Source: Dehalococcoidales bacterium
GTDB lineage: Bacteria; Chloroflexota; Dehalococcoidia; Dehalococcoidales; RBG-16-60-22
Direction: 5' to 3'
Assembly: GCA_034418415.1 (NCBI GenBank)
Contig: DAOULS010000080.1
Location: 8,513-72,512, forward strand
Length of the DNA: 64,000 nucleotides
Under the pieces are notes generated by a model, which had not been told where the DNA came from, searched no databases, and saw only the letters and a list, made by a program, of their open reading frames with translations. Every line of letters starts with the position of its first letter. The stretch's first letter is position 1. A program made the position numbers and the translations under genes. This document shows, piece after piece, positions 10,118-60,716 of this stretch.

Positions 10118-13100
10118 ATGGAACCGAAAATAGGTGTGTATATCTGTGATTGCGGTTCGAACATTCTGGGCAAGGTGGATGTTCCCAAGGTCGTGGAGTA
10201 TATCCAGGGCCTGCCGACGGTGACCATCGCCCGCGAGTACAGGTTCATGTGTTCCGGTCCGGGACAGGACATGATTGAGCAGGACATCAAGGAGATGGGA
10301 CTCAACCGTGTGGTCGTTGCCTCGTGTTCACCGCAGATGCACGAACCGACCTTCCGCCGCCTGATGCAGCGGGCCGGACTTAATCCCTACCTGTTTGAAA
10401 TGGCGAACATCCGCGAGCACGCCTCCTGGGTGACCGATGACCCCGATGCTGCCACGGAAAAAGCCAAAGCCTTGGTAAGCGCTGCGGTCAGGAGGGTGTA
10501 TTACCAGGAACCTCTGGAAACGAGGGAAGTGCCGGTCAATCCCGATACCATAGTTGTCGGCGGCGGTGTCGCCGGAATCCAGGCGGCACTGGAAATCGCC
10601 GATTCCGGGCATAAGGTTTACCTGGTGGAAAGGGAGCCGAGCATCGGCGGGCACATGATTCAGCTGGACAAGACCTTCCCCACCCTCGACTGCTCCGCCT
10701 GTATCCTTACGCCGAAGATGACCCTGGCCGGTTCCCATCCGTTTATCGAGCTGATGACCTACAGCGAGGTGACCGAGGTCTCCGGCTTCATCGGCAACTT
10801 TACCGTGAAGATACGTAAGAAGCCAAGGTACATTGATGTCAATGAGTGCAACGGCTGTTCCGACTGCGAAAAGGTATGCCCGGTGACCGTGCCGTCCGAA
10901 TTCAATATGAAGCTGGACACGCGCAAAGCCGCCTACCGTCCCTTCCCGCAGGCCGTCCCCAGCGCCTACGTCATTGATAAGCAGGGGAAGTCGCCGTGCT
11001 CGTTTACCTGCCCCGCCGGCGTCAATGCTCACGGCTATGTAGCGCTAATCTCGGAAGGCAAGTTCAAGGAAGCTATCGAAGTCCTGCGGCGCACCATGCC
11101 TTTTGCCGGGGTCTGCGGGCGGGTCTGCACCCATCCCTGCGAAGCCGAGTGCGAGCGGGGCAAAGTTGACGAGCCCATAGCAATAAGGGCTCTAAAGCGG
11201 TTCATGGCCGACTATGAAATGAAGAACGGACGTGAGAAAGCCGCGCCCGCGGAAATAACCAAGAAGGAAAAAATCGCCGTCGTCGGCTCCGGTCCCGCCG
11301 GGCTCGCCTGCGCTTACGACCTGGTGAAAGCCGGCTATCCGGTGACGGTCTTCGAGGCTGCTGATAAGGCCGGTGGTATGCTGCGCTACGGGATACCGGA
11401 ATACCGCCTGCCCAAGAGCATCCTCGATAGCGAGATTGACTATGTTAAAGAGCTTGGCGTTGAGATAAAGACTAAAACTGCTGTTACCGATATTGACGAG
11501 CTCAAGAAGCAGGGCTACAAGGCGGTGTTCCTGGCTAACGGCGCCTGGGTAAGTCAGAAGATGAACATCCCCGGCGAAGATGCCAAGGGAGTGATGCACG
11601 CCATCGAGTTCCTGAAACAGGCAAGCGAGGGCAAGAAAGTCGAACTCGGCAGCAAGGTTGCCGTGGTCGGCGGCGGTAATGCGGCCGTCGATGCCGCCCG
11701 TACGGCGTTGCGCCTGGGCGCTAAAGAGGTCAGCATTATTTACCGCCGTTCCCGGGCGGAAATGCCGGCTATTGCCAGTGAAATCGATGAAATGGAAGAG
11801 GAAGGCGTGACGATACGCTATCTGACCAATCCCGTTGAGGTAATCGCCGCCGACGGCAAGCTGAAAAAAGTCAAGTGCATCAAGATGGAGCTGGGCGAGC
11901 CGGATGCCTCCGGACGCCGTCGTCCGGTGCCGATTGAAGGGTCGGAATTTGAGTTGGAAATCGATACCCTGATTATGGCTATCGGCCAGGCGGTCAATAA
12001 ATCGATGCTGCCCGGTAATGTCCAATATTCCAAGTCCGGCACCGTTAACGCCGATGAGATAACCTTCGAGACCAGTGTCAAGGGGGTGTTCGCGGGTGGC
12101 GATGTCGTGGCCGGCCCGGCTACGGTTATCGAGGCGATTGCCGCCGGCAAGGAAGCCGCCATCTCCATCGACAGATACATACAGGGCGCCGATATGAAAG
12201 AAGGGCGACCCGAGGAAAAAGAGCGCGTCAAGGACGTAAACAAGGAGGGCGTCGCCAAGCAGCCGAGGGCGACCATGTCCAAGCTGCCTGTGGGCGAAAG
12301 GACAAAGTCGTTTAAGGAAGTGGAGGCGGGACTCGACGAGAAAGCGGCTATCGAAGAAGCCAGCCGCTGCCTTAACTGCGCCGTCTGCTCTGAATGCTTG
12401 CTGTGTGTCTCCGCCTGCGAGCGAAACGCCGTGAGGCACGACATGAAAGAGGAAATCGTCGAGGTCAACGTCGGCAACATCGTGCTGGCGACGGGGTACA
12501 AGGAGTTCGACCCCTCCGTGATACAGAATTACGGCTACGGGCGACTGGATAATGTCATTACCGGTCTGGAGTTCGAGCGTATGGTCAACTCCGCCGGTCC
12601 CACCAGCGGCAAGATACTGCTGAAGAACGGCGAGGAGCCGAAGAGCGTCGCCATTGTCCACTGTGTGGGCAGCCGCGATATCAATTACCACGAATACTGC
12701 TCGTCGGTCTGCTGTATGTACTCGCTCAAGTTTTCACACCTGCTTAGAGAGCACCTGCCCGAGGCGGAAATCTATGAGTTTTACATCGATATCCGCGCGC
12801 CGCGTAAGGGCTTCGAAGAGTTTTATAACCGCATCCTGAGGGAAGGAACGATTCTCTACCGCGGCCGTCCCGGTGAAATCACCGACGTACCGGAAACACC
12901 TTATGAGGAGGGTAAACTAATCGTCAAGTTTGAGAATACCCTCATCGGTGAAAAGGAGCGCCTGCCGGTCGATATGGTGATTCTTAGCTCCGCCCTGGAG
13001 CCCCATGAAGACTCCCGCGAGGTCGCTCGGATATTCAATATCAGCTGCGGCGAAGGAGACTTCTTCATCGAGAGGCATCCCAAGCTCGACCCGGTGGCGA

Positions 13101-13462
13101 CGATGACGGAAGGCGTTTTCATCGCCGGCTGCTGTGAAAGTCCCAAGGACATACGGGACAGCGTCGCCCAGGCTTCGGCCGCGGCGGCCAGGGTACTCGC
13201 CCTCATCAGCAAAGGCAAGGTGGAAACCGAAGCTACCATCGCGGAAATCGATGAGGAGCAGTGCTCCGGGTGCCGGGTTTGCAACCTGCTCTGTCCCTAT
13301 GGAGCGATAACCTACGACGAAGAAAAGAAGGTATCAAAAATCAACGACGCCATCTGTAAGGGCTGTGGGGCTTGTGTAGCCGCCTGCCCGAGTTCGGCCA
13401 TCAAGCATAAGCACTACACCACGCAAGAAATAATGGCGCAAATCGAGGGAATTCTGGTCTAG
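10118..13462 (+). CDS. hdrA: Giant HdrA-like flavoprotein with an inserted GltD/NfnB-like NAD(P)H module (HdrL-type)
   Basis: HdrA N-terminal domain (IGVYICDCGSNI), FAD site (VVGGGVAGIQAALE) and HdrA core (VAIVHCVGSRD, GVFIAGCC). C-terminal 2x[4Fe-4S] motifs (CSGCRVCNLLCP, CKGCGACVAACP). Between them lies a glutamate-synthase-small-subunit-like block (CGRVCTHPCEAECERG, VVGSGPAGLACAYDL, VVGGGNAAVDAAR, GVFAGGDVV). Confidence 0.9.
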   Translation: MEPKIGVYICDCGSNILGKVDVPKVVEYIQGLPTVTIAREYRFMCSGPGQDMIEQDIKEMGLNRVVVASCSPQMHEPTFRRLMQRAGLNPYLFEMANIREHASWVTDDPDAATEKAKALVSAAVRRVYYQEPLETREVPVNPDTIVVGGGVAGIQAALEIADSGHKVYLVEREPSIGGHMIQLDKTFPTLDCSACILTPKMTLAGSHPFIELMTYSEVTEVSGFIGNFTVKIRKKPRYIDVNECNGCSDCEKVCPVTVPSEFNMKLDTRKAAYRPFPQAVPSAYVIDKQGKSPCSFTCPAGVNAHGYVALISEGKFKEAIEVLRRTMPFAGVCGRVCTHPCEAECERGKVDEPIAIRALKRFMADYEMKNGREKAAPAEITKKEKIAVVGSGPAGLACAYDLVKAGYPVTVFEAADKAGGMLRYGIPEYRLPKSILDSEIDYVKELGVEIKTKTAVTDIDELKKQGYKAVFLANGAWVSQKMNIPGEDAKGVMHAIEFLKQASEGKKVELGSKVAVVGGGNAAVDAARTALRLGAKEVSIIYRRSRAEMPAIASEIDEMEEEGVTIRYLTNPVEVIAADGKLKKVKCIKMELGEPDASGRRRPVPIEGSEFELEIDTLIMAIGQAVNKSMLPGNVQYSKSGTVNADEITFETSVKGVFAGGDVVAGPATVIEAIAAGKEAAISIDRYIQGADMKEGRPEEKERVKDVNKEGVAKQPRATMSKLPVGERTKSFKEVEAGLDEKAAIEEASRCLNCAVCSECLLCVSACERNAVRHDMKEEIVEVNVGNIVLATGYKEFDPSVIQNYGYGRLDNVITGLEFERMVNSAGPTSGKILLKNGEEPKSVAIVHCVGSRDINYHEYCSSVCCMYSLKFSHLLREHLPEAEIYEFYIDIRAPRKGFEEFYNRILREGTILYRGRPGEITDVPETPYEEGKLIVKFENTLIGEKERLPVDMVILSSALEPHEDSREVARIFNISCGEGDFFIERHPKLDPVATMTEGVFIAGCCESPKDIRDSVAQASAAAARVLALISKGKVETEATIAEIDEEQCSGCRVCNLLCPYGAITYDEEKKVSKINDAICKGCGACVAACPSSAIKHKHYTTQEIMAQIEGILV

Positions 13463-13494
13463 GTCCGGTGTAATAGACCTGGAAAGGGGAAAAT

Positions 13495-14073
13495 ATGGAA
13501 ACGGAAACCATCAAAGAAGCCAAGACATTCGTTGATGAAGTGGCCGCCGAGCCCGGCGGAGAAAAGATTAACGAATGTATCCAGTGCGGGGTATGCAGCG
13601 GCTCCTGCCCGACCGTAGAATGGTGGCAATACCCGCCGCGAAAAATCATCGCCATGATACGGGCCGGGAAGCGGGACATGGTGCTTTCCAGCACCTCCGC
13701 TTTTAACTGTGTCACCTGCTATTCCTGCACGGTACGCTGCCCCCGGAACATCAACCCCACCCAGCTGATTCATGCCGTCGAAGCCATCGCCGAGCGTGAG
13801 GGTTATAAGCCGAAAACCCCGACCCTGACGCTGCATCGGGGCTTACGTGACGCGATGAAGCAGGGGCGTGTCTGGGAATTAAGCCTGGCAATGCTTTTCT
13901 ACCTGAAAACCAGTTTGATAGAAGGGATGAAAATGCTGCCGGTAGCCTGGGACCTGATATCCCGCGGTCTGATGCCGATTTTACCGCCTAAACGGACCAG
14001 GAAAGGCGGCAAAGAGGTCACGGCTATCGTGAAGGCGGTCGAGGCAATGCAAAAGAGCGGAGGTGCCAAATGA
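13495..14073 (+). CDS. hdrC: Heterodisulfide reductase subunit C-like
   Basis: Two ferredoxin-type motifs, CIQCGVCSGSCP and CVTCYSCTVRCP. Typical size and position. Confidence 0.85.
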   Translation: METETIKEAKTFVDEVAAEPGGEKINECIQCGVCSGSCPTVEWWQYPPRKIIAMIRAGKRDMVLSSTSAFNCVTCYSCTVRCPRNINPTQLIHAVEAIAEREGYKPKTPTLTLHRGLRDAMKQGRVWELSLAMLFYLKTSLIEGMKMLPVAWDLISRGLMPILPPKRTRKGGKEVTAIVKAVEAMQKSGGAK

Positions 14074-14960
14074 AAGAATACACTTATTTCCCCGGCTGTG
14101 CCATGGCGAGCACCGGGAAGCCGATTCAGGCATCCATGGATGCGGTTTGTGAGGTGCTGGGTATAGAACTCAAGGAGCTCGATGACTGGACATGCTGCGG
14201 CTGCCCTGGTGAATCGATTAACGAGCTGGCGGCAGTCGCCATCGCCACACGCAATCTGGCACTGGCGGAAAAAAGCGGTCTCGATATGGTTACGGCTTGC
14301 AGCTGCTGCTACCGGAACCTGCTGGCCGCCCACGTGACCTATACCGAAGACCCCAGAATCAGGGAACAGGTCAAGAAAGCCCTGGCGGCAACCAACCTGG
14401 AATATAACGGCACTTTACGCGTCAGAAACTTGGTTGACGTATTCGTCAACGATATCGGTCTTGATGTGATTGCTTCAAAAGTCCAGAGGAAATTGACCGG
14501 CCTGAAGGTCGCCAGCTATTACGGCTGCCACCAGTCGCGCCCTTACGGTCCGGACGACCATGAATTCCCTGTCTGGCAGGACCAGATAGTCGAAGCCCTC
14601 GGCGCCGAAACGGTCTTCTTCCCCTTGAAGGCTCAATGCTGCGGAGGCACGCAGCTTTTCAGTAACAAAAAGATGATTTACAAGCTGCTCTATAAAATCC
14701 TCGATAACGTTGAAGAGCACGGCGGCGAGTGCATTTCCAGCACGCTGTGCCCGCTGTGTTTCACCAACCTGGACGCCAATCAGGGGCGGATTAATAACCG
14801 TGTGGGCAAGAAATTTGATATGCCGGTGCTGGCTTTGACGCAGCTCATGGGCATCGCTTTCGGCTTGAGTCCCAGCGAGCTCGGGTTTAACAAGAATATC
14901 TCCCCGGCCCTTAGAGCGGTTAAACCATATTTGAAGGTACCGGCACAGGAGGTATCGTAA
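14070..14960 (+). CDS. hdrB: Heterodisulfide reductase subunit B-like (two CCG domains)
   Basis: CCG-domain cysteines (WTCCGCPG..., CSCCY, QCCGG). ATGA overlap with hdrC. Confidence 0.88.
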
Positions 14961-15391
14961 TGAGTTGGGAACCGAAGATTGTAGGATTTTTGTGTAACTG
15001 GTGCTCTTATCGCGGCGCCGACCTGGCGGGTACATCGCGGATGCATTTCGCGCCCAACGTGAAAGTAATCAGGGTGCCCTGCAGTACCAGGGTGGAACCG
15101 TCTTTCGTGGTAAAAGCCTTTCAGTCGGGTGCCGACGGCGTGCTTATCCTGGGTTGCCATCCGGGGGACTGCCATTATATTGAAGGAAATTACAAGACAA
15201 TGCGGCGCATGCCGCTGTTAAAGAAAATGCTCAAGCAATTCGGCATTGAACCTGAAAGAGTCCGCCTGGACTGGGTATCCGCTTCTGAAGGTGAGAAATA
15301 CGCCAATGTCGTCAATGAAATGACGGAGAAGGTCAGGGAACTCGGACCGTTCAGGTCGAATAACGGGGAGGGTCAACATGGCAAAAATTAA
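14960..15391 (+). CDS. mvhD: Methyl-viologen-reducing hydrogenase delta subunit MvhD
   Basis: [15 protein letters not shown] ... GCHPGDCHY family signature. Start overlaps the hdrB stop (TAATG). Confidence 0.9.
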
Positions 15392-16337
15392 ACTGGCACT
15401 GTACTGGGCCTCCAGCTGCGGCGGTTGTGAAATCGCCCAGCTCCAGATAGGTGAAAAACTCTTGAAACTAATAGAGGTAGCCGATATCGTTTTCTGGCCG
15501 GTGGCTATCGACGTGAAGTATAAAGACGTGGAAGCCATGCCGGATAAAAGTATCGATGTCTGCCTGTTCAATGGCGCCATCCGCACCTCGGAGCAGGAGC
15601 ACATGGCAAAAATGCTGCGCGATAAGTCAAAAATAATGATTGCCTACGGCGCCTGCGCCACTTACGGAGGCATTCCGGGTCTGGGTAACCTGTATAACCG
15701 TGAGTTGATTTTCAACCGGGCTTATCTGGAAACGCAGTCCACGGATAATGAAAAGAAGGTGACTCCCCAGACCAGTATTGACGTACCGGAAGGGAAGCTC
15801 TCTCTCCCTGAATTTTTCGATACCGTGAGAAGTCTGCCGCAAACGGTGGACGTGGACTTCATCATCCCAGGCTGTCCGCCGGAAGAAAAGACCACCTGGC
15901 TTGCCCTGGAAGCGCTGATTCAAAACAAGCTGCCGCCCAAGGGCTCGATAATTTCTCATAACGTCAAAGCGGTGTGCGATGATTGCCCCCGCACCAAGAA
16001 CGAAAAGAAGGTCAAGAAATTCTACCGTCCGTTCCAGGTCGAGACGGACCCGGAGGTCTGTCTGCTGGAGCAGGGGGTACTCTGCGCCGGGGTAGCCACT
16101 GCCGGCGGCTGCGATGCCATGTGCCCGAAAGCCAACATGCCCTGCACCGGATGCTATGGTCCGGTTAAGGGAGTTACCGACCAGGGGGTGCATTTTTTGA
16201 GCGCGGTGGCGTCGATAATCGATTCCACCGACCCCGAAGAAATTAACAAGATAATCGAGGATATTGCTGACCCGGCCGGCACGTTTTACAGGTACTCGCT
16301 GCCGGAATCGCTGTTAAGGAGGGCCAAGATATCATGA
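15378..16337 (+). CDS. mvhG: [NiFe] hydrogenase small subunit, Mvh/F420-non-reducing type
   Basis: N-terminal SSCGGCE proximal-cluster motif and further Cys clusters ([12 protein letters not shown]). Overlaps the mvhD end. Confidence 0.88.
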
Positions 16338-17797
16338 AGAAGATAACGATAGACCCGATAACCCGTCTCGAAGGCCACGGTAAGATAGAGATATTTCTGG
16401 ATGACAAGGGCGGGGTCGCTAATTCATATTTCCAGGTGCCGGAATTGAGAGGCTTTGAGAAGTTCGCCGAAGGTCGCAATTCCGACGATATGCCACAGAT
16501 TACCGAGAGGATATGCGGCGTCTGCCCGGAAGCGCACCACCTGGCTTCGACCAAAACACTTGATGCCCTCTACCACGTCGACCCGCCCCCGACAGCTAGA
16601 AAACTACGTGAAATTTTCTACGATGCCTTCTATGTAACCGACCATACCACGCATTTCTACATCCTGGGCGGCCCGGACTTTGTCATGGGGCCCGATGCCC
16701 CGGTAGCCGAGCGCAATATTATCGGCGTTATCGGCAAGGTGGGGCTGGAACTGGGTGGGGCTGTTATCAAAGCCCGCATGCGGAATCACCATGTCATCGA
16801 GTTGATTGGCGGCAGGGGTGTTCACCCTGTCTTCGGTCTGCCCGGCGGCGTCAGCAAAAGCATTAATGAAGAAGAAAGAAAAGAAATCGAGGAAATTGCC
16901 AAGGAGTCGATAGAGTTCGGCAAGCTGTCGCTGAAGGTCTTCGATGATATTGTTCTCAAGAACAAAGCCTATGTAGATATGATTGTCAGCGATGCTTATA
17001 CCCACAAGACCTACTATATGGGACTTGTGGATGAGAACAACAAAGCCAACTATTATGACGGCAAGGTCAGGGTAGTTGACCCCGAAGGCAAGGAATTTGC
17101 GAAGTTTGCTCCCGCCGAGTATCTCGACCATGTCGCCGAGCATGTTGAGCCGTGGTCCTATATCAAGTTCCCCTTCCTGAAGAAGGTGGGGTGGAAGGGA
17201 TTTGTGGATGGCAAGGACAGCGGTGTCTTCCGCGTAGCGCCGCTCGCCAGGCTCAACGCCGCCGACGGTATGTCGACCCCGCTGGCACAGGAACACTACG
17301 AGAAATTCTACGAGACCCTCGGCGGTAAGCCGGTACACCATACGCTGGCGATGCACTGGGCACGCCTTATCGAGCTGCTTAATGCCGCAGAACACATGCT
17401 GGAGCTGATTCGCGACCCTGACATTACCAGTCCTGAAATACGCACTATCCCCGATAAGACTCCCGATGAAGGCGTAGGAATCGTGGAGGCGCCCCGGGGT
17501 ACGCTTATCCACCACTATATCACCGATGAAAAGGGCGTGATTCAAAAGGCAAACCTGATTGTAGCTACGGTCAACAACGGCGCCGCCGTCAATATGTCGA
17601 TAGGTAAAGCGGCCAAGGCGGTTATCCAGCCCGGTAAGGAAATCACCGAGGGCATCCTCAACCGGGTAGAGATGGCCTGGCGTCCCTACGACCTCTGCCT
17701 TGCCTGCGCTTCGCATGATTTGAATGGCCCTTCACCGGTGCCGATTTACGTGTACGACAGCCAGAAAAATCTGGTGAAGAAACTGGGTGGAGATTAA
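16334..17797 (+). CDS. mvhA: [NiFe] hydrogenase large subunit, Mvh type
   Basis: N-terminal RICGVCPEAHH and C-terminal DLCLACASH Ni-binding motifs, with a C-terminal tail after the His. ATGA overlap with mvhG. Confidence 0.92.
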   Translation: MKKITIDPITRLEGHGKIEIFLDDKGGVANSYFQVPELRGFEKFAEGRNSDDMPQITERICGVCPEAHHLASTKTLDALYHVDPPPTARKLREIFYDAFYVTDHTTHFYILGGPDFVMGPDAPVAERNIIGVIGKVGLELGGAVIKARMRNHHVIELIGGRGVHPVFGLPGGVSKSINEEERKEIEEIAKESIEFGKLSLKVFDDIVLKNKAYVDMIVSDAYTHKTYYMGLVDENNKANYYDGKVRVVDPEGKEFAKFAPAEYLDHVAEHVEPWSYIKFPFLKKVGWKGFVDGKDSGVFRVAPLARLNAADGMSTPLAQEHYEKFYETLGGKPVHHTLAMHWARLIELLNAAEHMLELIRDPDITSPEIRTIPDKTPDEGVGIVEAPRGTLIHHYITDEKGVIQKANLIVATVNNGAAVNMSIGKAAKAVIQPGKEITEGILNRVEMAWRPYDLCLACASHDLNGPSPVPIYVYDSQKNLVKKLGGD

Positions 17798-23033: not shown

Positions 23034-24944
23034 TTATGGTTTAAGTTTTTCCAGCAACTCGTTGAGTCGAACTGTAGCTACGGCAGTGACTTTATCCGCG
23101 CCACCATAGTAGAGGTGCAGGGTATTCTCAATTACAGCGGCGCCGCAGGAGAAAACGGCATTATTAACAATACCGTTTCTCTCATAATCCGTTTCAGGTT
23201 CCAGGATAGCTGTATAAGTACGTCCGATAATACGCATGGGGTCGTTCAGGTTTAATAGTGCCGCTTTAATTTCGTAATAAGCATGGTTAATGGTCACCCC
23301 ATGATAAAGCAAAAGCCAGCCGTGTGGTGTTTCAATAGGCGGTCCGGCGATGCCGATTTTCTGGTGGACACGCGGCATAGGCCTGGGTGTCATGAGAACC
23401 TGCCCGTAAATCCACCTGTTGCCGTCAAAGTCCAGGTCATCAACAAAATCCACCCAGATGCTGTCACCGAGGCGGTGTAAAATTACATATTTACCCTCTA
23501 TTTTCTTGGGAAATATCGCGGCATCTTTATCAGCTAAATCAGGGGGAGAAATCAATACCGGTTCGGCCCAGTCCCATTGTTTTGCTAAAAAATCATCCAG
23601 TTTGATGTGTGTAAGTGCTACTCTAGGAGGATTTTTGCCGCTGAAGGCGGTATAACACATGTATAGATTATCTCCTATTCGGGTTAATCGGGGGTCTTCA
23701 CAGCCGGAGTTGCCCCCCGCTACCTGCTTCATCTCGAAGTCCTTTCGCGGTACGTATACAGGGTCAGGTAGCCGTTCAGTAATCCGCGTGCCGTCGGCGC
23801 TGGAAGCATACCCCAGAACGGAGGTATTATCATTCGACATAGCCCGGTAAAGAAGGTGAACCCTGCCTTTTTCATAAATAACCCCCGGATTAAAAGTTGC
23901 CTGGGCTTCCCAAGGATTTTGGTCGTTGGGTGTGAGGATAGGATTATCAAAAAAGCGTTTGAGTTTTACAGTATTAACTTCAATTCCCAGTATTTCACGT
24001 ACCATCTGGTCTAAATTGATGGTCGCCGCGGCACAGGTGGTATCCGCCGCGCCGTAATACATATACAGCTCTTTACCCCTGACAACAGCACCGGTTGGGA
24101 AAACGATGTTCGGGACGCGTCCGTATTTTTCATATTCCTGTCGCGGTACCAGGAGAGGTTTCTTGGTACGGCCGAGCACCTCGGTGGGGTTATATAAACT
24201 CAATAATGCGGCTTCTACGCCGAAAACAGGTGGCGGATTGAAGTAGTTCTGAATATGACTGTAGAGTAAAAGCCAACCGTATTTGGTCTTAATGGGAGGC
24301 GCCCCGACCTCAATCTGGTCTTGGTCTTGCCGTTCCAGAGGAATGGTGCGTGAATTTAGCGATTCGTACCACTTGTCCCAGTAATTTTGCGACCAGATTT
24401 CAGTTTCGTCATCAAAATAGGCAACGGCGATTTTAGCTGGAGGATTGTCCGTGTTTGCCGTGAGCACGGCGGCAATTTTCCCATTGATTCTTTCGGGAAA
24501 AAGCGCCATAGCCTTGGCGTTGAAAGTAGTAACAGGATGTTTGGCTTCAATCTGTTTAAAATCACTGGTAATAGCTACCCCGACTCTAATACCATCGGCA
24601 GTGAAGGGATATTTAGATAGAGCCGTGTAAAAAATATAGTATTTACCATCCAGGCCGGTAACGCGCGGGTCCTCGCAGCCGAACTGCTCCCACTCCTCCT
24701 CCGGTCTGATAAGCTGGTAACGGTCATTAAAGTGAATACCGTCACTACTCGAAGCACAGCCAATGGACGAGACATTCCTGTGAGGTCCTCCGTTGCTTAA
24801 AGCCGATGATTCAGCGCGATACAAGAGATATATCTTACCCTTATGCTTGACAGGGCAACCGTTAAAGGTCGCCTCTCCCTCCCAGTTGTTATCAGGGTCG
24901 GGTATTAAAACTGGGTTCTCGTCAGAGCGTTTAAAGCGAATCAT
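23034..24944 (-). CDS. Tandem double GH130-family (PH1107/DUF377-type) glycoside phosphorylase/hydrolase-like protein
   Basis: Two complete five-bladed-propeller-type halves. Each has FN(G/P)..., LLYRA, GCEDPR(V/L)T and YYG(A/G)AD motifs. ATG 24944 is preferred (AAGGA 8 nt upstream); the track uses TTG 24950. Confidence 0.85.
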   Translation of the reverse strand: MIRFKRSDENPVLIPDPDNNWEGEATFNGCPVKHKGKIYLLYRAESSALSNGGPHRNVSSIGCASSSDGIHFNDRYQLIRPEEEWEQFGCEDPRVTGLDGKYYIFYTALSKYPFTADGIRVGVAITSDFKQIEAKHPVTTFNAKAMALFPERINGKIAAVLTANTDNPPAKIAVAYFDDETEIWSQNYWDKWYESLNSRTIPLERQDQDQIEVGAPPIKTKYGWLLLYSHIQNYFNPPPVFGVEAALLSLYNPTEVLGRTKKPLLVPRQEYEKYGRVPNIVFPTGAVVRGKELYMYYGAADTTCAAATINLDQMVREILGIEVNTVKLKRFFDNPILTPNDQNPWEAQATFNPGVIYEKGRVHLLYRAMSNDNTSVLGYASSADGTRITERLPDPVYVPRKDFEMKQVAGGNSGCEDPRLTRIGDNLYMCYTAFSGKNPPRVALTHIKLDDFLAKQWDWAEPVLISPPDLADKDAAIFPKKIEGKYVILHRLGDSIWVDFVDDLDFDGNRWIYGQVLMTPRPMPRVHQKIGIAGPPIETPHGWLLLYHGVTINHAYYEIKAALLNLNDPMRIIGRTYTAILEPETDYERNGIVNNAVFSCGAAVIENTLHLYYGGADKVTAVATVRLNELLEKLKP

Positions 24945-24978
24945 GCCCAAAATCCTTTCTCTTTTTTTACAGACTTTC

Positions 24979-26256
24979 CTAAATACGCAGGGTAGATTTT
25001 ACAAATTTCAGCATGTTTTTCCCGCACTGCGGACACACACCCTTGATAGCATGCCTCATGTTTTTGAAAACTACACGACGCGGGTTTTTAATAACCCGCT
25101 TTTGCCGGCATTTAAGGCAGAATCCATCTACACGTTTCATTGTCTTATCTGCATCAGAAGAAGGCGGTACGCTTATGCTCCGGCCGGTCGACTCTTTATG
25201 GTTTGCGGCGAGCTCCTCGACAAAGCCGTTTAGTTTTACCGAGGCAACGCCGACTATCTTATCAGCCCCTCCATAGTATACAAACAAGCGTTTGTTAATT
25301 ATGGCAGCCCCGCAGGGATAAACCACGCCGGCTTTCCAGCCTTCGTTTTCATACCAGGCGTTAGGCTCAAGAATAGGTTTCCTGCTTCGAGCCAGCACCT
25401 TGGTCGGGTCTTTCAGGTCCAGCAGCATCGCCCCGATTTTATAACGGTAGCCGTCATTCTTACCAACCGCCTGATAAACAAGCAGCCAGCCATATTTAGT
25501 TTTTAATGGTGGCGGTCCTGCCCCAACCTTGTGGCTGTCCCACTCTGAACTCGAGGTCCTTATAGGTATTTCATACTGTCCGGTCAGCCACTTTGTTCTG
25601 CCGTCAAAGTCCAGGTCGTCAACGAAGTCAATAAGTATATTCGGATAAATCCGATGAAAAATAACGTATTTCCCATTTATTTTTTCCGGGAAAATACAGG
25701 CATTCTTGTCCACGATGTGGGGGGGAGAGATAAGGACGGGTTTTTTCCAGTCCCACCGCCGGGCAAGAAAGTCATCAACATGAATCGAGGTCAATGCCAC
25801 GCGGGGGGGATTGCGCCCGTCATAAGCGACATAGGTCATATATACACGTTCATTAATTCTGGTCAGGCGCGGGTCTTCACAGCCCCCCATACCCCCGCCT
25901 CCCGAAACATAGATACCCGAAGTCCCTGTACCAGGCTGGTAAACCGGGTTGATTCCTTCGAATGGTTCTCTAGGGGAGTACACCGGCTTATCGAGGCGTT
26001 CCTGAATATGCATCCCATCCGTGCTGGAGGCGTAGCCTAACATGGAGACATCCGTTTCACCAATTGCCCGGTAAAGAATATGTACCTTGCCGCCTTCATA
26101 AATAGCGGCGGGATTAAAGGTGGCTTTTGTCTCCCACCAGCTATCGGGTCTGGGGGTCAAAATAGGATTACCTTTATACCTTTCCAGTACCAATGGAATG
26201 TTTTTTACTAATTGTTTCGTCATTATTCCGTGTTGTTTTGTCATTATCCCGGCCAT
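24979..26256 (-). CDS. GH130-family protein fused to a C-terminal CxxC...CxxC zinc ribbon (DUF5679-like)
   Basis: GH130 motifs (FNPAAIY, ILYRA, GGCEDPRLT, YYGGAD) and a close paralog of the second half of the 23034 gene. C-terminal tail is FCLKCRQKRVIKNPRRVVFKNMRHAIKGVCPQCGKNMLKFV. GGGGGTGG RBS. Confidence 0.85.
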   Translation of the reverse strand: MAGIMTKQHGIMTKQLVKNIPLVLERYKGNPILTPRPDSWWETKATFNPAAIYEGGKVHILYRAIGETDVSMLGYASSTDGMHIQERLDKPVYSPREPFEGINPVYQPGTGTSGIYVSGGGGMGGCEDPRLTRINERVYMTYVAYDGRNPPRVALTSIHVDDFLARRWDWKKPVLISPPHIVDKNACIFPEKINGKYVIFHRIYPNILIDFVDDLDFDGRTKWLTGQYEIPIRTSSSEWDSHKVGAGPPPLKTKYGWLLVYQAVGKNDGYRYKIGAMLLDLKDPTKVLARSRKPILEPNAWYENEGWKAGVVYPCGAAIINKRLFVYYGGADKIVGVASVKLNGFVEELAANHKESTGRSISVPPSSDADKTMKRVDGFCLKCRQKRVIKNPRRVVFKNMRHAIKGVCPQCGKNMLKFVKSTLRI

Positions 26257-26311: not shown

Positions 26312-26788
26312 TTAAGTAAGTTCTTCGTTTAGTTCATCCAGCCGAGCCAGGACTTGTTTATTAGGAGGAATATCACTCATGGATGCCCCATGATGTTCCA
26401 GGCGTATCATGCCGTTTTTATCAATCACAAATAGAGCTGGCATCCTGCCCATTTTCAGGAGATTAACCTCCTGCCCGAACTTTTTAGCAATTGTGTGGGC
26501 GGGGTCAGGTATGCCAATAAAAGGTATCTTTTTGCTGCGCCAGTAGTCCGAGAGCTGTTTAGTGTTTTCAGGTCCTACAGCAATGACTTCTGCATCACGG
26601 TCAATGAATTGCTGATAATCCTGACGCAACTGCGCCATATGCTCCCGGCAGTATGGTCAGCCCAAACCCCGATTGAATACCAGCACCACATGCTTCTTGC
26701 CTTTATAATCCGCCAGCCTTATTAATCTTCCATGTGTATCGTTAGCAAAAAAGTCCTTTGCAGAAGCAGCGGTTTTAGTATTTGTCAT
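26312..26788 (-). CDS. Peroxiredoxin/thioredoxin-fold (AhpC/TSA-redoxin) selenoprotein; in-frame TGA at 26659..26657 read as Sec (residue 44, U-P-Y-C motif)
   Basis: The track ORF (26312..26638) is only the C-terminal two-thirds. The same frame upstream reads MTNTKTAASAKDFFANDTHGRLIRLADYKGKKHVVLVFNRGLG-TGA-PYCREH-MAQL..., with ATG 26788 preceded by GGGGAGG. A hairpin follows the TGA. Confidence 0.8.
26622..26637 (-). promoter_or_regulatory. Candidate bacterial SECIS hairpin
   Basis: mRNA sequence UGGCGC-AGUU-GCGUCA, a 6-bp stem including one G-U pair with a tetraloop that has G at its second position. Starts 23 nt after the U of UGA. Confidence 0.5.
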
Positions 26789-26939
26789 TACAATGGCCTC
26801 CCCTAAGAGTAATTACCTCTGGATATGGCTGGTAAAGAAGCGGTAATATCATGCACCTAAATCTTGGAAGTGGGGCTCTAGAAGGCATTACAGTCTTGCT
26901 TATGTCCCTTAAAAATTTTAGATTACGGCCAGTGGAAAA

Positions 26940-26979
26940 GTTATAAAACCAGCGGGAAAAACGTTACAAAATCGTGACA
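26940..26979 (-). promoter_or_regulatory. Copy B of the conserved 40-nt promoter/operator module (faces the selenoprotein-GH130 operon)
   Basis: Minus-strand read is TGTCACGATTTTGTAACGTTTTTCCCGCTGGTTTTATAAC, in the same register as copy A. Confidence 0.55.
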
Positions 26980-27046
26980 TTTCCTGGCTGGGTTTAAAAT
27001 CAGGGAAGGCGGTATTTGTGAATCGGGGATGGTTTTATGAAAAAAA

Positions 27047-27086
27047 TGACATATTTTTGTAATTATTCCGGGGCCTATTTTATGAC
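27047..27086 (+). promoter_or_regulatory. Copy C of the conserved 40-nt promoter/operator module
   Basis: TGACATATTTTTGTAATTATTCCGGGGCCTATTTTATGAC, in the same register. Lies about 57 nt upstream of the 27143 CDS. Confidence 0.55.
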
Positions 27087-27142
27087 TTTTCCATCAGTAG
27101 CTATATAAAATCTCTAAATCAGGCAGTCTGGAGGGACGGGTA

Positions 27143-27364
27143 ATGACACTAACGCTAATAAAAGAAGAGAGGATTTTAAAAAATAGGGCAGGGGATGATT
27201 CATTAAGGACCGAAGAGGTCATGGCGTTTTGCCCCCGGTGTAAAGCCCTCCAGACAGTCTGGCTTCAAGGGAATATTATGATGCCGACACGCAAATTTAG
27301 TCAGGCAGGGGGCCGGATTTATCATAATTGTGGCTCAAATCAACCGTGCATTCTATATTCTTAA
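27143..27364 (+). CDS. Small hypothetical zinc-ribbon protein
   Basis: GGAGGG RBS 8 nt upstream. CPRC...HNCG cysteine/histidine pairs. No family recognised. Confidence 0.45.
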   Translation: MTLTLIKEERILKNRAGDDSLRTEEVMAFCPRCKALQTVWLQGNIMMPTRKFSQAGGRIYHNCGSNQPCILYS

Positions 27365-27451
27365 TGTTTAATATAACCCACAGATTGACGATATATAGTC
27401 TTTAAAAGGAAAGCTAACTCCCACGGGAAAGTGTGCCGTTATGAGGTCTGG

Positions 27452-59999: not shown

Positions 60000-60716
60000 C
60001 TATATTTCCAGTGCCACCGTCAGTCCCCACACGCTGGCGGCGCCGGCTTCCTTCAGTATTTCCGCGCAGGTATTGAGAGTAGCCCCGGACGTGGATACGT
60101 CGTCGATTATTATCACCTGTTTACCTTTTAAACTCTCGCCGGAGCAGGCGAAGGCGCCGGCGATGTTCTTACGCCGTTCTGCGGCGCTGGCTGTCCTTAC
60201 CTGCGGCGGCGTGTTGATGCTTCTTGTAAGGCTGTCCTCGATGACAGGCAGTCCCTTCTTCCTGCCCAGCGCATGCGCTATCAGTGAGGACTGATTATAA
60301 CCGCGCTCGCGCAGACGTTTGGGGTGTATAGGCACCGGCACCAGGACATCGCCGGAGATGGGGTTCTCCAGGAGGTAGTCGTGCAGGAGACCGGCCAGCA
60401 GCGGCGCGATTGCCTTGAGATTGCGGTATTTGAACTCGTGAACCGCCTTGCGGATAACGCCGTGAAACAGGAAGGGAGCGCGGATGCCGTCGATGGTAAC
60501 CGGCTCTTCGATACAGCCGGGGCAGGTGTTTTGCTCCGTCAATGGTCGTCCACACGTGGCGCAGACCGGAGGTGAAATAAGGGGCAGCTTCTCGAGGCAG
60601 GCGCTGCAGATGTATCGACCCTCCCGCCCGCAGCCGATGCACCAGGGCGGGAAAAACAGGTCTAGTGCTACCCTCTTCAGATTCATTATTTGAGGAAGCA
60701 CGTTTGCCATCCGCAA
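60000..60716 (-). CDS. comF: ComF-family protein (N-terminal zinc finger + phosphoribosyltransferase domain)
   Basis: CxxC...CxxC N-terminus and the PRT motif VIIIDDVSTSGATL. Confidence 0.85.
   Translation of the reverse strand: MRMANVLPQIMNLKRVALDLFFPPWCIGCGREGRYICSACLEKLPLISPPVCATCGRPLTEQNTCPGCIEEPVTIDGIRAPFLFHGVIRKAVHEFKYRNLKAIAPLLAGLLHDYLLENPISGDVLVPVPIHPKRLRERGYNQSSLIAHALGRKKGLPVIEDSLTRSINTPPQVRTASAAERRKNIAGAFACSGESLKGKQVIIIDDVSTSGATLNTCAEILKEAGAASVWGLTVALEI

Follow-up and report, generated by a model that had tools for sequence, protein, structure and literature searches.

The locus lies on the minus strand of the window, as the whole 64-kb stretch of DNA analysed here is called below, where a frame of 158 codons runs from an ATG at positions 26788-26786 to a TAA at 26314-26312 and is interrupted only once, by a TGA at 26659-26657 that constitutes codon 44. 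The 43 sense codons in front of the TGA, read from ATG 26788, encode MTNTKTAASAKDFFANDTHGRLIRLADYKGKKHVVLVFNRGLG, and the TGA is followed by the residues PYCREH, which run into the MAQLRQ... of the listed ORF; the mechanical ORF list called just this last portion (26312..26638, 108 aa). The complete frame (26312..26788) encodes an AhpC/TSA-Redoxin domain of the thioredoxin fold, with the motif FNRGLG-U-PYC at the interruption. When Cys is put in place of the TGA, the 158-residue protein matches the Pfam AhpC-TSA family PF00578 over residues 9-129 with 88 bits (E-value 6.3e-25, cut-off 26) and the Redoxin family PF08534 with an E-value of 1e-20, the former match extending across the TGA, and full-length homologs align with the 158-codon product from end to end. 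The original prediction had described a longer gene made up of ATG 26788, 43 codons, the TGA and a PYCREH-MAQL junction, and all of these coordinates are confirmed by the translation and by the continuity of the Pfam domain over the TGA.

The start codon at 26786..26788 is preceded, 8 nt further 5′, by the Shine-Dalgarno-like sequence GGGGAGG (26797..26803, minus strand), which had likewise been predicted and is the same in four assemblies of a close relative. The N-terminus of the protein aligns with the starts of the full-length homologs, and upstream of ATG 26788 the frame stays open for just eight more codons, among which there is no other start codon. The in-frame TGA (26657..26659) would encode the selenocysteine U44 of the motif G-U-P-Y-C, and a TGC at 26648..26650 encodes Cys47, the second residue of the U-x-x-C pair, which is kept by 90 % or more of the 46 sequences aligned. 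What the public records call a 108-aa "peroxiredoxin" is the final two-thirds of a redox protein of 158 residues. Downstream on the same strand, a GH130 gene with a C-terminal DUF5679 (24979..26256; Pfam PF04041, E-value 6e-50) starts about 55 nt after the stop codon and is followed by a second GH130 gene with two GH130 domains (23034..24950; PF04041, E-value 2.5e-99, in two stretches), while an OmpR-type response regulator and a PAS histidine kinase are encoded upstream, also on the minus strand.

The conservation of the TGA was assessed in a locus scan of one genome per species with protein patterns that carry no bias towards TGA, and TGA is present at the aligned codon in all 80 species-level loci, which upholds the proposal of an in-frame Sec codon in U-P-Y-C. 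The loci are mostly from Chloroflexota (Dehalococcoidia, Anaerolineae and others), with further ones in Desulfobacterota (Deltaproteobacteria, Syntrophaceae and Smithellaceae), Spirochaetota, Actinomycetota, KSB1, Calditrichaceae and Myxococcales, and the closest homologs occur in Dehalococcoidales MAGs (63-67 %). In protein searches the relatives fall into two classes, many of about 108 aa that start with MAQLRQ and full-length ones of about 155-165 aa. Of the 45 full-length proteins aligned, 32 have W where the TGA falls and 10 have C, while F, R and L occur once each. The sole W protein checked at the DNA level, that of L087, has a TGA at this codon and its called product is not obtained under translation table 11, so the W is an artefact of the gene caller, and the W calls in the remaining homologs are probably artefacts of the same kind. 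A minority of the homologs have Cys at the TGA position, as had been anticipated, with a TGT or TGC codon in L081, L083, L085 and L086, and the 43 N-terminal codons are conserved and align with these full-length Cys proteins, again in keeping with the prediction. The hairpin described below is kept in L081, L083 and L086 and lost in L085, which suggests recent Sec-to-Cys conversions, and the first three have apparently arisen in this way. The Cys homologs served only partly as a hairpin-free control, and the codons chosen in the remainder of each gene took over this role.

Shortly 3′ of the UGA, the mRNA contains the hairpin UGGCGC(AGUU)GCGUCA at 26622..26637 on the minus strand, within the coding sequence at the codons for M51-A-Q-L-R-Q56. 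It consists of a 5′ arm (26637-26632), an AGUU loop (26631-26628) and a 3′ arm (26627-26622) that form six pairs, one of them G-U, and it is separated from the UGA by a 19-nt spacer (26638..26656, minus strand), which places the apical loop 25 nt from the UGA. The consensus model of bacterial SECIS elements (bSECIS) is said to originate from Zhang and Gladyshev. The model specifies a loop of 3-9 nt, an upper stem of 4-16 bp, a G in the first two loop positions, a distance of 16-37 nt from the UGA to the loop and a free energy of -7.5 kcal/mol or lower (PMC13188914). The hairpin has this shape, with a loop of 4 nt that carries a G at position 2 and a stem of 6 bp, and its spacing and loop G fit the consensus, as had been claimed. 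Its energy, -7.3 kcal/mol for the 16-mer and -8.1 kcal/mol with 3-nt flanks, is borderline against the -7.5 kcal/mol of the model, and the majority form among the homologs, which has a G-C pair instead of the G-U, reaches -10.0 kcal/mol. The window hairpin resembles the E. coli fdhF-type bSECIS in being a coding-region hairpin just 3′ of the UGA, with G-U at positions 2-3 of its 4-nt loop, but it has no lower stem, internal loop or bulged U.

Taken from the window alone, the evidence of the hairpin is only moderate. The single-sequence MFE fold of the 76 nt 3′ of the UGA consists of other pairings in which the hairpin is not used (z = -0.06), and single-sequence thermodynamics was therefore dropped as evidence. 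An equal or better hairpin by the same criteria is found at 2.2 % of the 2047 TGA trinucleotides in the window, and of the 44 in-frame TGAs there that are flanked by open frames just two have one, 26659 and 60541 (minus strand), the latter being out of frame with the ORF at that site.

With the homologs included, the evidence is decisive. The hairpin is the only structure that RNAalifold predicts for the 90-nt region in 79 homologs, and 99.0 % of its cells are paired over 82 sequences, 14 of which have a G-U wobble like that of the window. Compensatory double changes occur in four of the six pairs, U-A being replaced by C-G in L041, G-C by C-G in L042 and L074, G-C by U-A in L036 and C-G by U-A in L073. 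Not one of the hairpin measures is attained in any of 500 shuffles, and slid registers collapse. The 16 nt are nearly invariant across genes with a GC content of 40-67 %, and the codons within them depart from the usage in the rest of these genes: GCG encodes Ala in 76 of 77 cases (22 % elsewhere), TTG encodes Leu in 78 of 79 (16.5 %), CAG encodes Gln in 78 of 78 (69 %) and CGY encodes Arg in 77 of 77 (49.5 %). Identity at third codon positions is accordingly 0.93 in the hairpin codons versus 0.36-0.44 in the flanks. The hairpin of the original prediction is thus present as it was described, and it is the structure identified as conserved by RNAalifold and by covariation.

The locus very likely holds a genuine selenoprotein gene that encodes a 158-residue, thioredoxin-fold, Prx-like (AhpC/TSA-Redoxin) protein with the redox centre U44-P-Y-C47. 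By analogy with Sec decoding in other bacteria, a ribosome at the UGA (26659-26657) would meet the hairpin 19 nt downstream, bound by SelB-GTP-Sec-tRNASec; SelB would recognise the 6-bp stem and the AGUU loop with its G-U, Sec would be delivered and termination would be avoided.

The gene could instead be a relic, a pseudogene in a lineage that has lost Sec decoding from a family that is Sec-dependent as a whole, which we consider improbable. Genes for selA, selB, selD and tRNA-Sec are absent from the 64-kb window, where a Rfam scan at gathering thresholds returned tRNA-Val only and no SECIS or tRNA-Sec model, in agreement with ARAGORN; however, 64 kb is far too small a sample to expect sel genes. 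A second selenoprotein gene was not found in the window either: the NiFe hydrogenase large subunit encoded there is of the Cys type and ends in TAA, and no upstream extension through an in-frame TGA was seen for an HdrA-like ORF. The class Dehalococcoidia includes some of the most selenoprotein-rich bacteria catalogued, with genomes of 46-49 selenoprotein genes (PMC13326102). Decay does occur in the clade, as in the closest full-length relative (P0001/L088) Sec has been lost to a TTT codon and the hairpin and conserved residues are degraded, but in the window gene the TGA, hairpin, start codon, ribosome-binding site and all family-invariant residues are intact. A 95.6 %-identical relative, represented by four independent metagenome assemblies, has also kept the TGA, start codon and ribosome-binding site; the window gene differs from it at 21 nt of 480, and the 15 synonymous against 5 non-synonymous codon changes between them likewise speak against a pseudogene.

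It is more doubtful still that the existing annotation is correct, with TGA 26659 acting as a stop, a 108-aa product translated from ATG 26638 and the upstream 43 codons being separate or non-coding. ORF callers and public databases do give a 108-aa "peroxiredoxin" or "peroxiredoxin Q/BCP", although the exact 108-aa sequence of the window has no public entry, and in the records of the 95.6 %-identical relative the gene is split into ORFs of 43 and 108 aa; in addition, an SD-like GGGAG 3 nt before ATG 26638 would make a separate 108-aa product possible when judged from the sequence alone. Such a product, however, would be devoid of the redox motif and of the first β-strands, and in the long form the Pfam match begins as early as residue 9. 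Selection at the protein level acts on the upstream codons, which align with Cys-containing full-length homologs, and the 12 codons 5′ of the TGA bear a coding signature in 78 genomes, with an identity of 0.78 at first, 0.90 at second and 0.44 at third positions. The SD-like sequence before ATG 26638, on the other hand, is not conserved, most loci having CGCCGGCACATG in its place, and the frozen synonymous sites that follow this ATG are explained by the RNA hairpin and not by initiation.

A different decoding of the UGA, either by genome-wide reassignment to Trp or Gly or by near-cognate read-through, is highly improbable. The W called at the codon in most of the full-length homologs would be in line with it, but the L087 case points to a gene-caller artefact, and TGA terminates 11 of the 38 long ORFs in the window and is therefore not reassigned in this genome. 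Furthermore, the homologs substitute Cys for the encoded residue, not Trp or Gly, and a conserved SECIS-type hairpin at the canonical distance would be left unexplained. Finally, the idea that the TGA is a TGC or TGT misread in sequencing or assembly has nothing in its favour other than the single nucleotide that separates the codons, and it is effectively refuted, since the TGA is kept in the four independent assemblies of the close relative as well as in 80 of 80 other species.

The selenoprotein that this locus very likely encodes has a peroxiredoxin-like fold with an altered active site. In a profile search of the PDB, archaeal BCP/PrxQ proteins come first (2ywn and 3drn, E-values of about 1e-18), followed by AhpE and ResA. 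The AlphaFold2 model of the Cys homolog P0003, which is 59-60 % identical to the window protein, has a pLDDT of 90.4, and in it a helix spanning residues 45-56 starts directly after position 44, so that the CxxC is located at the N-terminus of the helix, as is usual for motifs of this type. A Foldseek search with this model gives Bcp1, Bcp4, Prx1 and AhpE as the top matches (TM-scores of 0.81-0.86 at about 24 % identity), and the three-dimensional fold is that of the Prx/BCP proteins. The HMM alignment to 2ywn, however, places FNRGFxUPFC on FYPAAFTQVC, where Sec occupies the position of the Thr in the T-x-x-C of peroxiredoxins and Cys47 falls on the peroxidatic Cys. The original prediction had Sec replacing the peroxidatic Cys, and this part of it is contradicted by the 2ywn alignment. 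Of the peroxiredoxin signature P-x-x-x-T/S-x-x-C only the Cys is kept, the Pro being replaced by Arg40 and the Thr by Sec, and the catalytic Arg of the R-x-x-F-[VI]-I-D motif is missing as well, with the Arg of 2ywn aligned to the invariant Pro117 (G-R-M-P-A...ID).

The protein probably does not work as a canonical peroxiredoxin, on account of the Sec at the Thr position and the replacement of the catalytic Pro and Arg by Arg40 and Pro117. The location of Sec at the N-terminal position of a CxxC-type pair, together with the loss of the peroxiredoxin Pro and Arg, favours a thiol:disulfide oxidoreductase over a peroxidase, and the sequence and the structural model suggest that the protein is more likely a CxxC-type thiol:disulfide oxidoreductase built on a BCP-like scaffold. 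The selenol/thiol pair would then probably cycle between a reduced and a selenenylsulfide form, as in oxidoreductases of that type. Some members of the family read U-P-H-C, resembling the CPHC motif of DsbA.

Among the proteins of known type, BCP/PrxQ (Sulfolobus Bcp1, 3drn, and Bcp4, 3hjp, as well as 2ywn) provide the best match both in sequence, with a profile E-value of 1e-18, and in structure, with Foldseek TM-scores of 0.83-0.85, an rmsd of 2.1-2.3 Å and Cys47 on the peroxidatic Cys. They differ from the window protein in that the identity is just about 24 %, that their P-x-x-x-T-x-x-C reads R-G-[FL]-x-U-P-x-C here, and that the catalytic Arg has become an invariant Pro. TlpA/ResA proteins share a CxxC-type pair at a helix N-terminus, and the invariant Pro of the window protein may correspond to the cis-Pro loop of the thioredoxin fold; the match to them is weaker than that to BCP (E-values of 1e-12 to 1e-9 for ResA structures and 5e-12 for the ResA NCBIfam model), and the motif here is U-P-x-C, DsbA-like CPHC in some members, instead of C-x-P-C. 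A further difference is that the 158-aa protein has no evident membrane anchor or signal sequence.

The known selenoproteins of similar fold were compared as well. SelL and the SelL-related family NF040769 also have a Prx-like thioredoxin fold and a Sec in a CxxC-type motif, and of the NCBIfam models NF040769 matches best (75.5 bits, cut-off 120, E-value 3.8e-21, residues 11-105), but the match covers just profile positions 4-99 of 173, and SelL proper has UxxU. In the PrxU (TxxU) selenoproteins the Sec is peroxidatic, whereas that of the window protein is at the Thr position, and the corresponding model NF040737 scores 16.4 bits against a cut-off of 270. With both the SelL-related and the PrxU model below their cut-offs, no NCBIfam model captures the protein.

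A closer counterpart is the Prx-like thiol:disulfide oxidoreductase selenoprotein (pfam00578, UxxC/UxxU, exemplar WP_010940744.1), reportedly described by Kryukov and Gladyshev in 2004. Compared by family description, the two are alike in having PF00578 as the top domain, a U-x-x-C motif, Cys homologs and a bSECIS downstream of the Sec codon. Reviews define prokaryotic selenoprotein families by a conserved domain and a Sec motif (PMC9312934, PMC13188914, PMC2398784), and both the domain and the motif of the Prx-like family are found in the window gene, which by this definition belongs to an already known kind of selenoprotein, although it had not been annotated as such. The Prx-like family is listed as "predicted" in reviews (PMC13188914, PMC9312934) and has members in Geobacter, Syntrophus and Desulfotalea (PMC1794560); the TGA homologs identified here in Syntrophaceae, Smithellaceae and Deltaproteobacteria MAGs belong to the group for which the family was originally listed (PMC1794560). 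It corresponds to "Prx-like 1" in the GOS ocean metagenomes, where 2,740 Cys homologs stand against 225 Sec forms (PMC2398784). In contrast to this Cys-rich family, the clade described here consists mostly of Chloroflexota and nearly all of it has the Sec form (80 of 80 species-level loci). It is conceivable, if rather unlikely, that the clade represents a distinct, uncatalogued subfamily that is centred on Chloroflexota, almost obligately Sec-containing, marked by the 16-nt hairpin UGGCGCAGUUGCGCCA in at least seven phyla, and endowed with a thiol/selenol chemistry of its own. Should it be one, the combination of U-P-x-C with a BCP scaffold could allow reactions that differ from those of Prx and also from those of TlpA/ResA.

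The most direct implication of the finding is that the annotation needs correcting, a selenoprotein of 158 aa taking the place of the 108-aa fragment, and the same holds for hundreds of homologs in Chloroflexota and other anaerobes. That selenoprotein genes are annotated in truncated form is a widespread problem and recognised as such (PMC13326102), and programs that search for selenoprotein genes could be benchmarked on the family. The organism itself appears as a probable user of selenium, which bears on its cultivation, as selenium would be needed in the medium, and on its redox physiology. The gene also offers an example of dual coding, in which five codons (M-A-Q-L-R) are frozen at their synonymous sites by an RNA hairpin. 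The knowledge of how Sec is encoded is left unchanged, as no new mechanism is involved.

The gene had also been proposed to be the first of an operon with the GH130 genes and to sit behind copy B of a promoter module. For the latter, no repeated module was detected: the window contains no direct or inverted repeat of at least 45 nt, none involves the upstream region within 20-32 kb, and when 26789-27451 was compared with the window by blastn-short, the only matches were of 13-19 nt, at the level of chance. The operon fares better in part, as the genes are co-oriented, no terminator-like site was found on the minus strand between the selenoprotein gene and the GH130 gene, and the gene order is kept in the close relatives L089-L092, with the GH130 order the same in L089, L091 and L092; in this lineage the gene organisation suggests that the selenoprotein gene is probably co-transcribed with the two GH130 genes. 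The neighbours are, however, not conserved across the 80 loci, and the linkage to GH130 is therefore specific to the lineage. The most frequent neighbours in the family, neither of them general, are presumably an alpha/beta-hydrolase-like ORF upstream, at 15 loci, and what we take to be a carbon-nitrogen hydrolase-like ORF downstream, at 10 loci.

The SECIS hairpin, which lies within the coding sequence 3′ of the Sec codon, is not confined to homologs that carry TGA at this position. In three loci with Cys homologs (L081, 737-1219; L083, 943-1413; L086, 928-1416), the Sec codon is replaced by TGT or TGC and the hairpin is nonetheless retained, in L083 via a compensatory U-A pair. Since a Cys codon and the hairpin coexist in these genes, the sequences suggest recent Sec-to-Cys conversions that would have left "fossil" SECIS elements behind. 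In a further Cys homolog, L085 (TGC), the hairpin has been lost.

The nearest full-length relative of the window protein is P0001, encoded at positions 74-550 of locus L088 (JGI Ga0568923_0070525), which has the same N-terminus and 69 % identity. There, the TGA is replaced by TTT (Phe), the hairpin is degraded (ACGGCACAGTTGCGTCA), and the protein is altered at otherwise invariant residues, with NRG changed to YRG, HM to YT and GRMPA to DCIPA. P0001 has the look of a copy that is in decay or has been neofunctionalised. The locus may come from a sample series related to that of L089-L092, the four metagenome assemblies of a close relative of the window gene, as the sample numbering is similar. 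Another irregularity is found in L078 (1599-1688; uncultured Dehalococcoidales MAG CAYSQK010000124.1), where a TAG directly precedes the Sec TGA (..GF-TAG-TGA-PYC..) in a gene that is otherwise intact, as is its hairpin; possible explanations for the TAG are an error in the assembly, recent pseudogenisation and recoding of a second stop codon.

In the window gene, a GGGAG on the minus strand (26641-26645) lies 3 nt 5′ of the annotated start ATG 26638. The motif is unconserved in most homologs and may be the reason that gene callers readily begin the 108-aa ORF at this position.

Elsewhere in the window, a plus-strand cluster at 10118-17797 encodes an HdrA-like flavoprotein of 1114 aa that contains Fe-S domains, a protein sharing the CCG domain of HdrB, and both subunits, small and large, of a NiFe hydrogenase. 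A NiFeSe enzyme was rejected because the large subunit is of the Cys type (..DLCLACASH..) and ends with a TAA stop. Apart from the Sec codon, only one in-frame TGA of the window, at 60541 (-), is both flanked by open frames and accompanied by a SECIS-like hairpin (CCGGCU GUAUCGAAG AGCCGG, -9.6 kcal/mol), which is 24 nt from it. It is in a different frame from the 238-aa ORF at 60000-60716, no Cys is found near the TGA, and the combination is probably due to chance.

Among the flanks of the 80 TGA-containing loci, the commonest neighbour, found in 15 loci, is a co-directional alpha/beta-hydrolase-like ORF directly upstream; L085 also has Pfam matches to Abhydrolase. Ten loci have a downstream ORF which, from reading its sequence, we take to resemble a carbon-nitrogen hydrolase. 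The window contains neither of these ORFs. A 73-aa ORF at 27143-27364 (+), which separates the selenoprotein gene from the response regulator and runs opposite to the selenoprotein gene, has no Pfam match on record, and a 73-aa gene is called at the matching position in L089, L090 and L091. Finally, the first GH130 protein (24979-26256, -) carries a C-terminal DUF5679 domain (residues 380-418, E 4e-10), an architecture also found in L089, L091 and L092.
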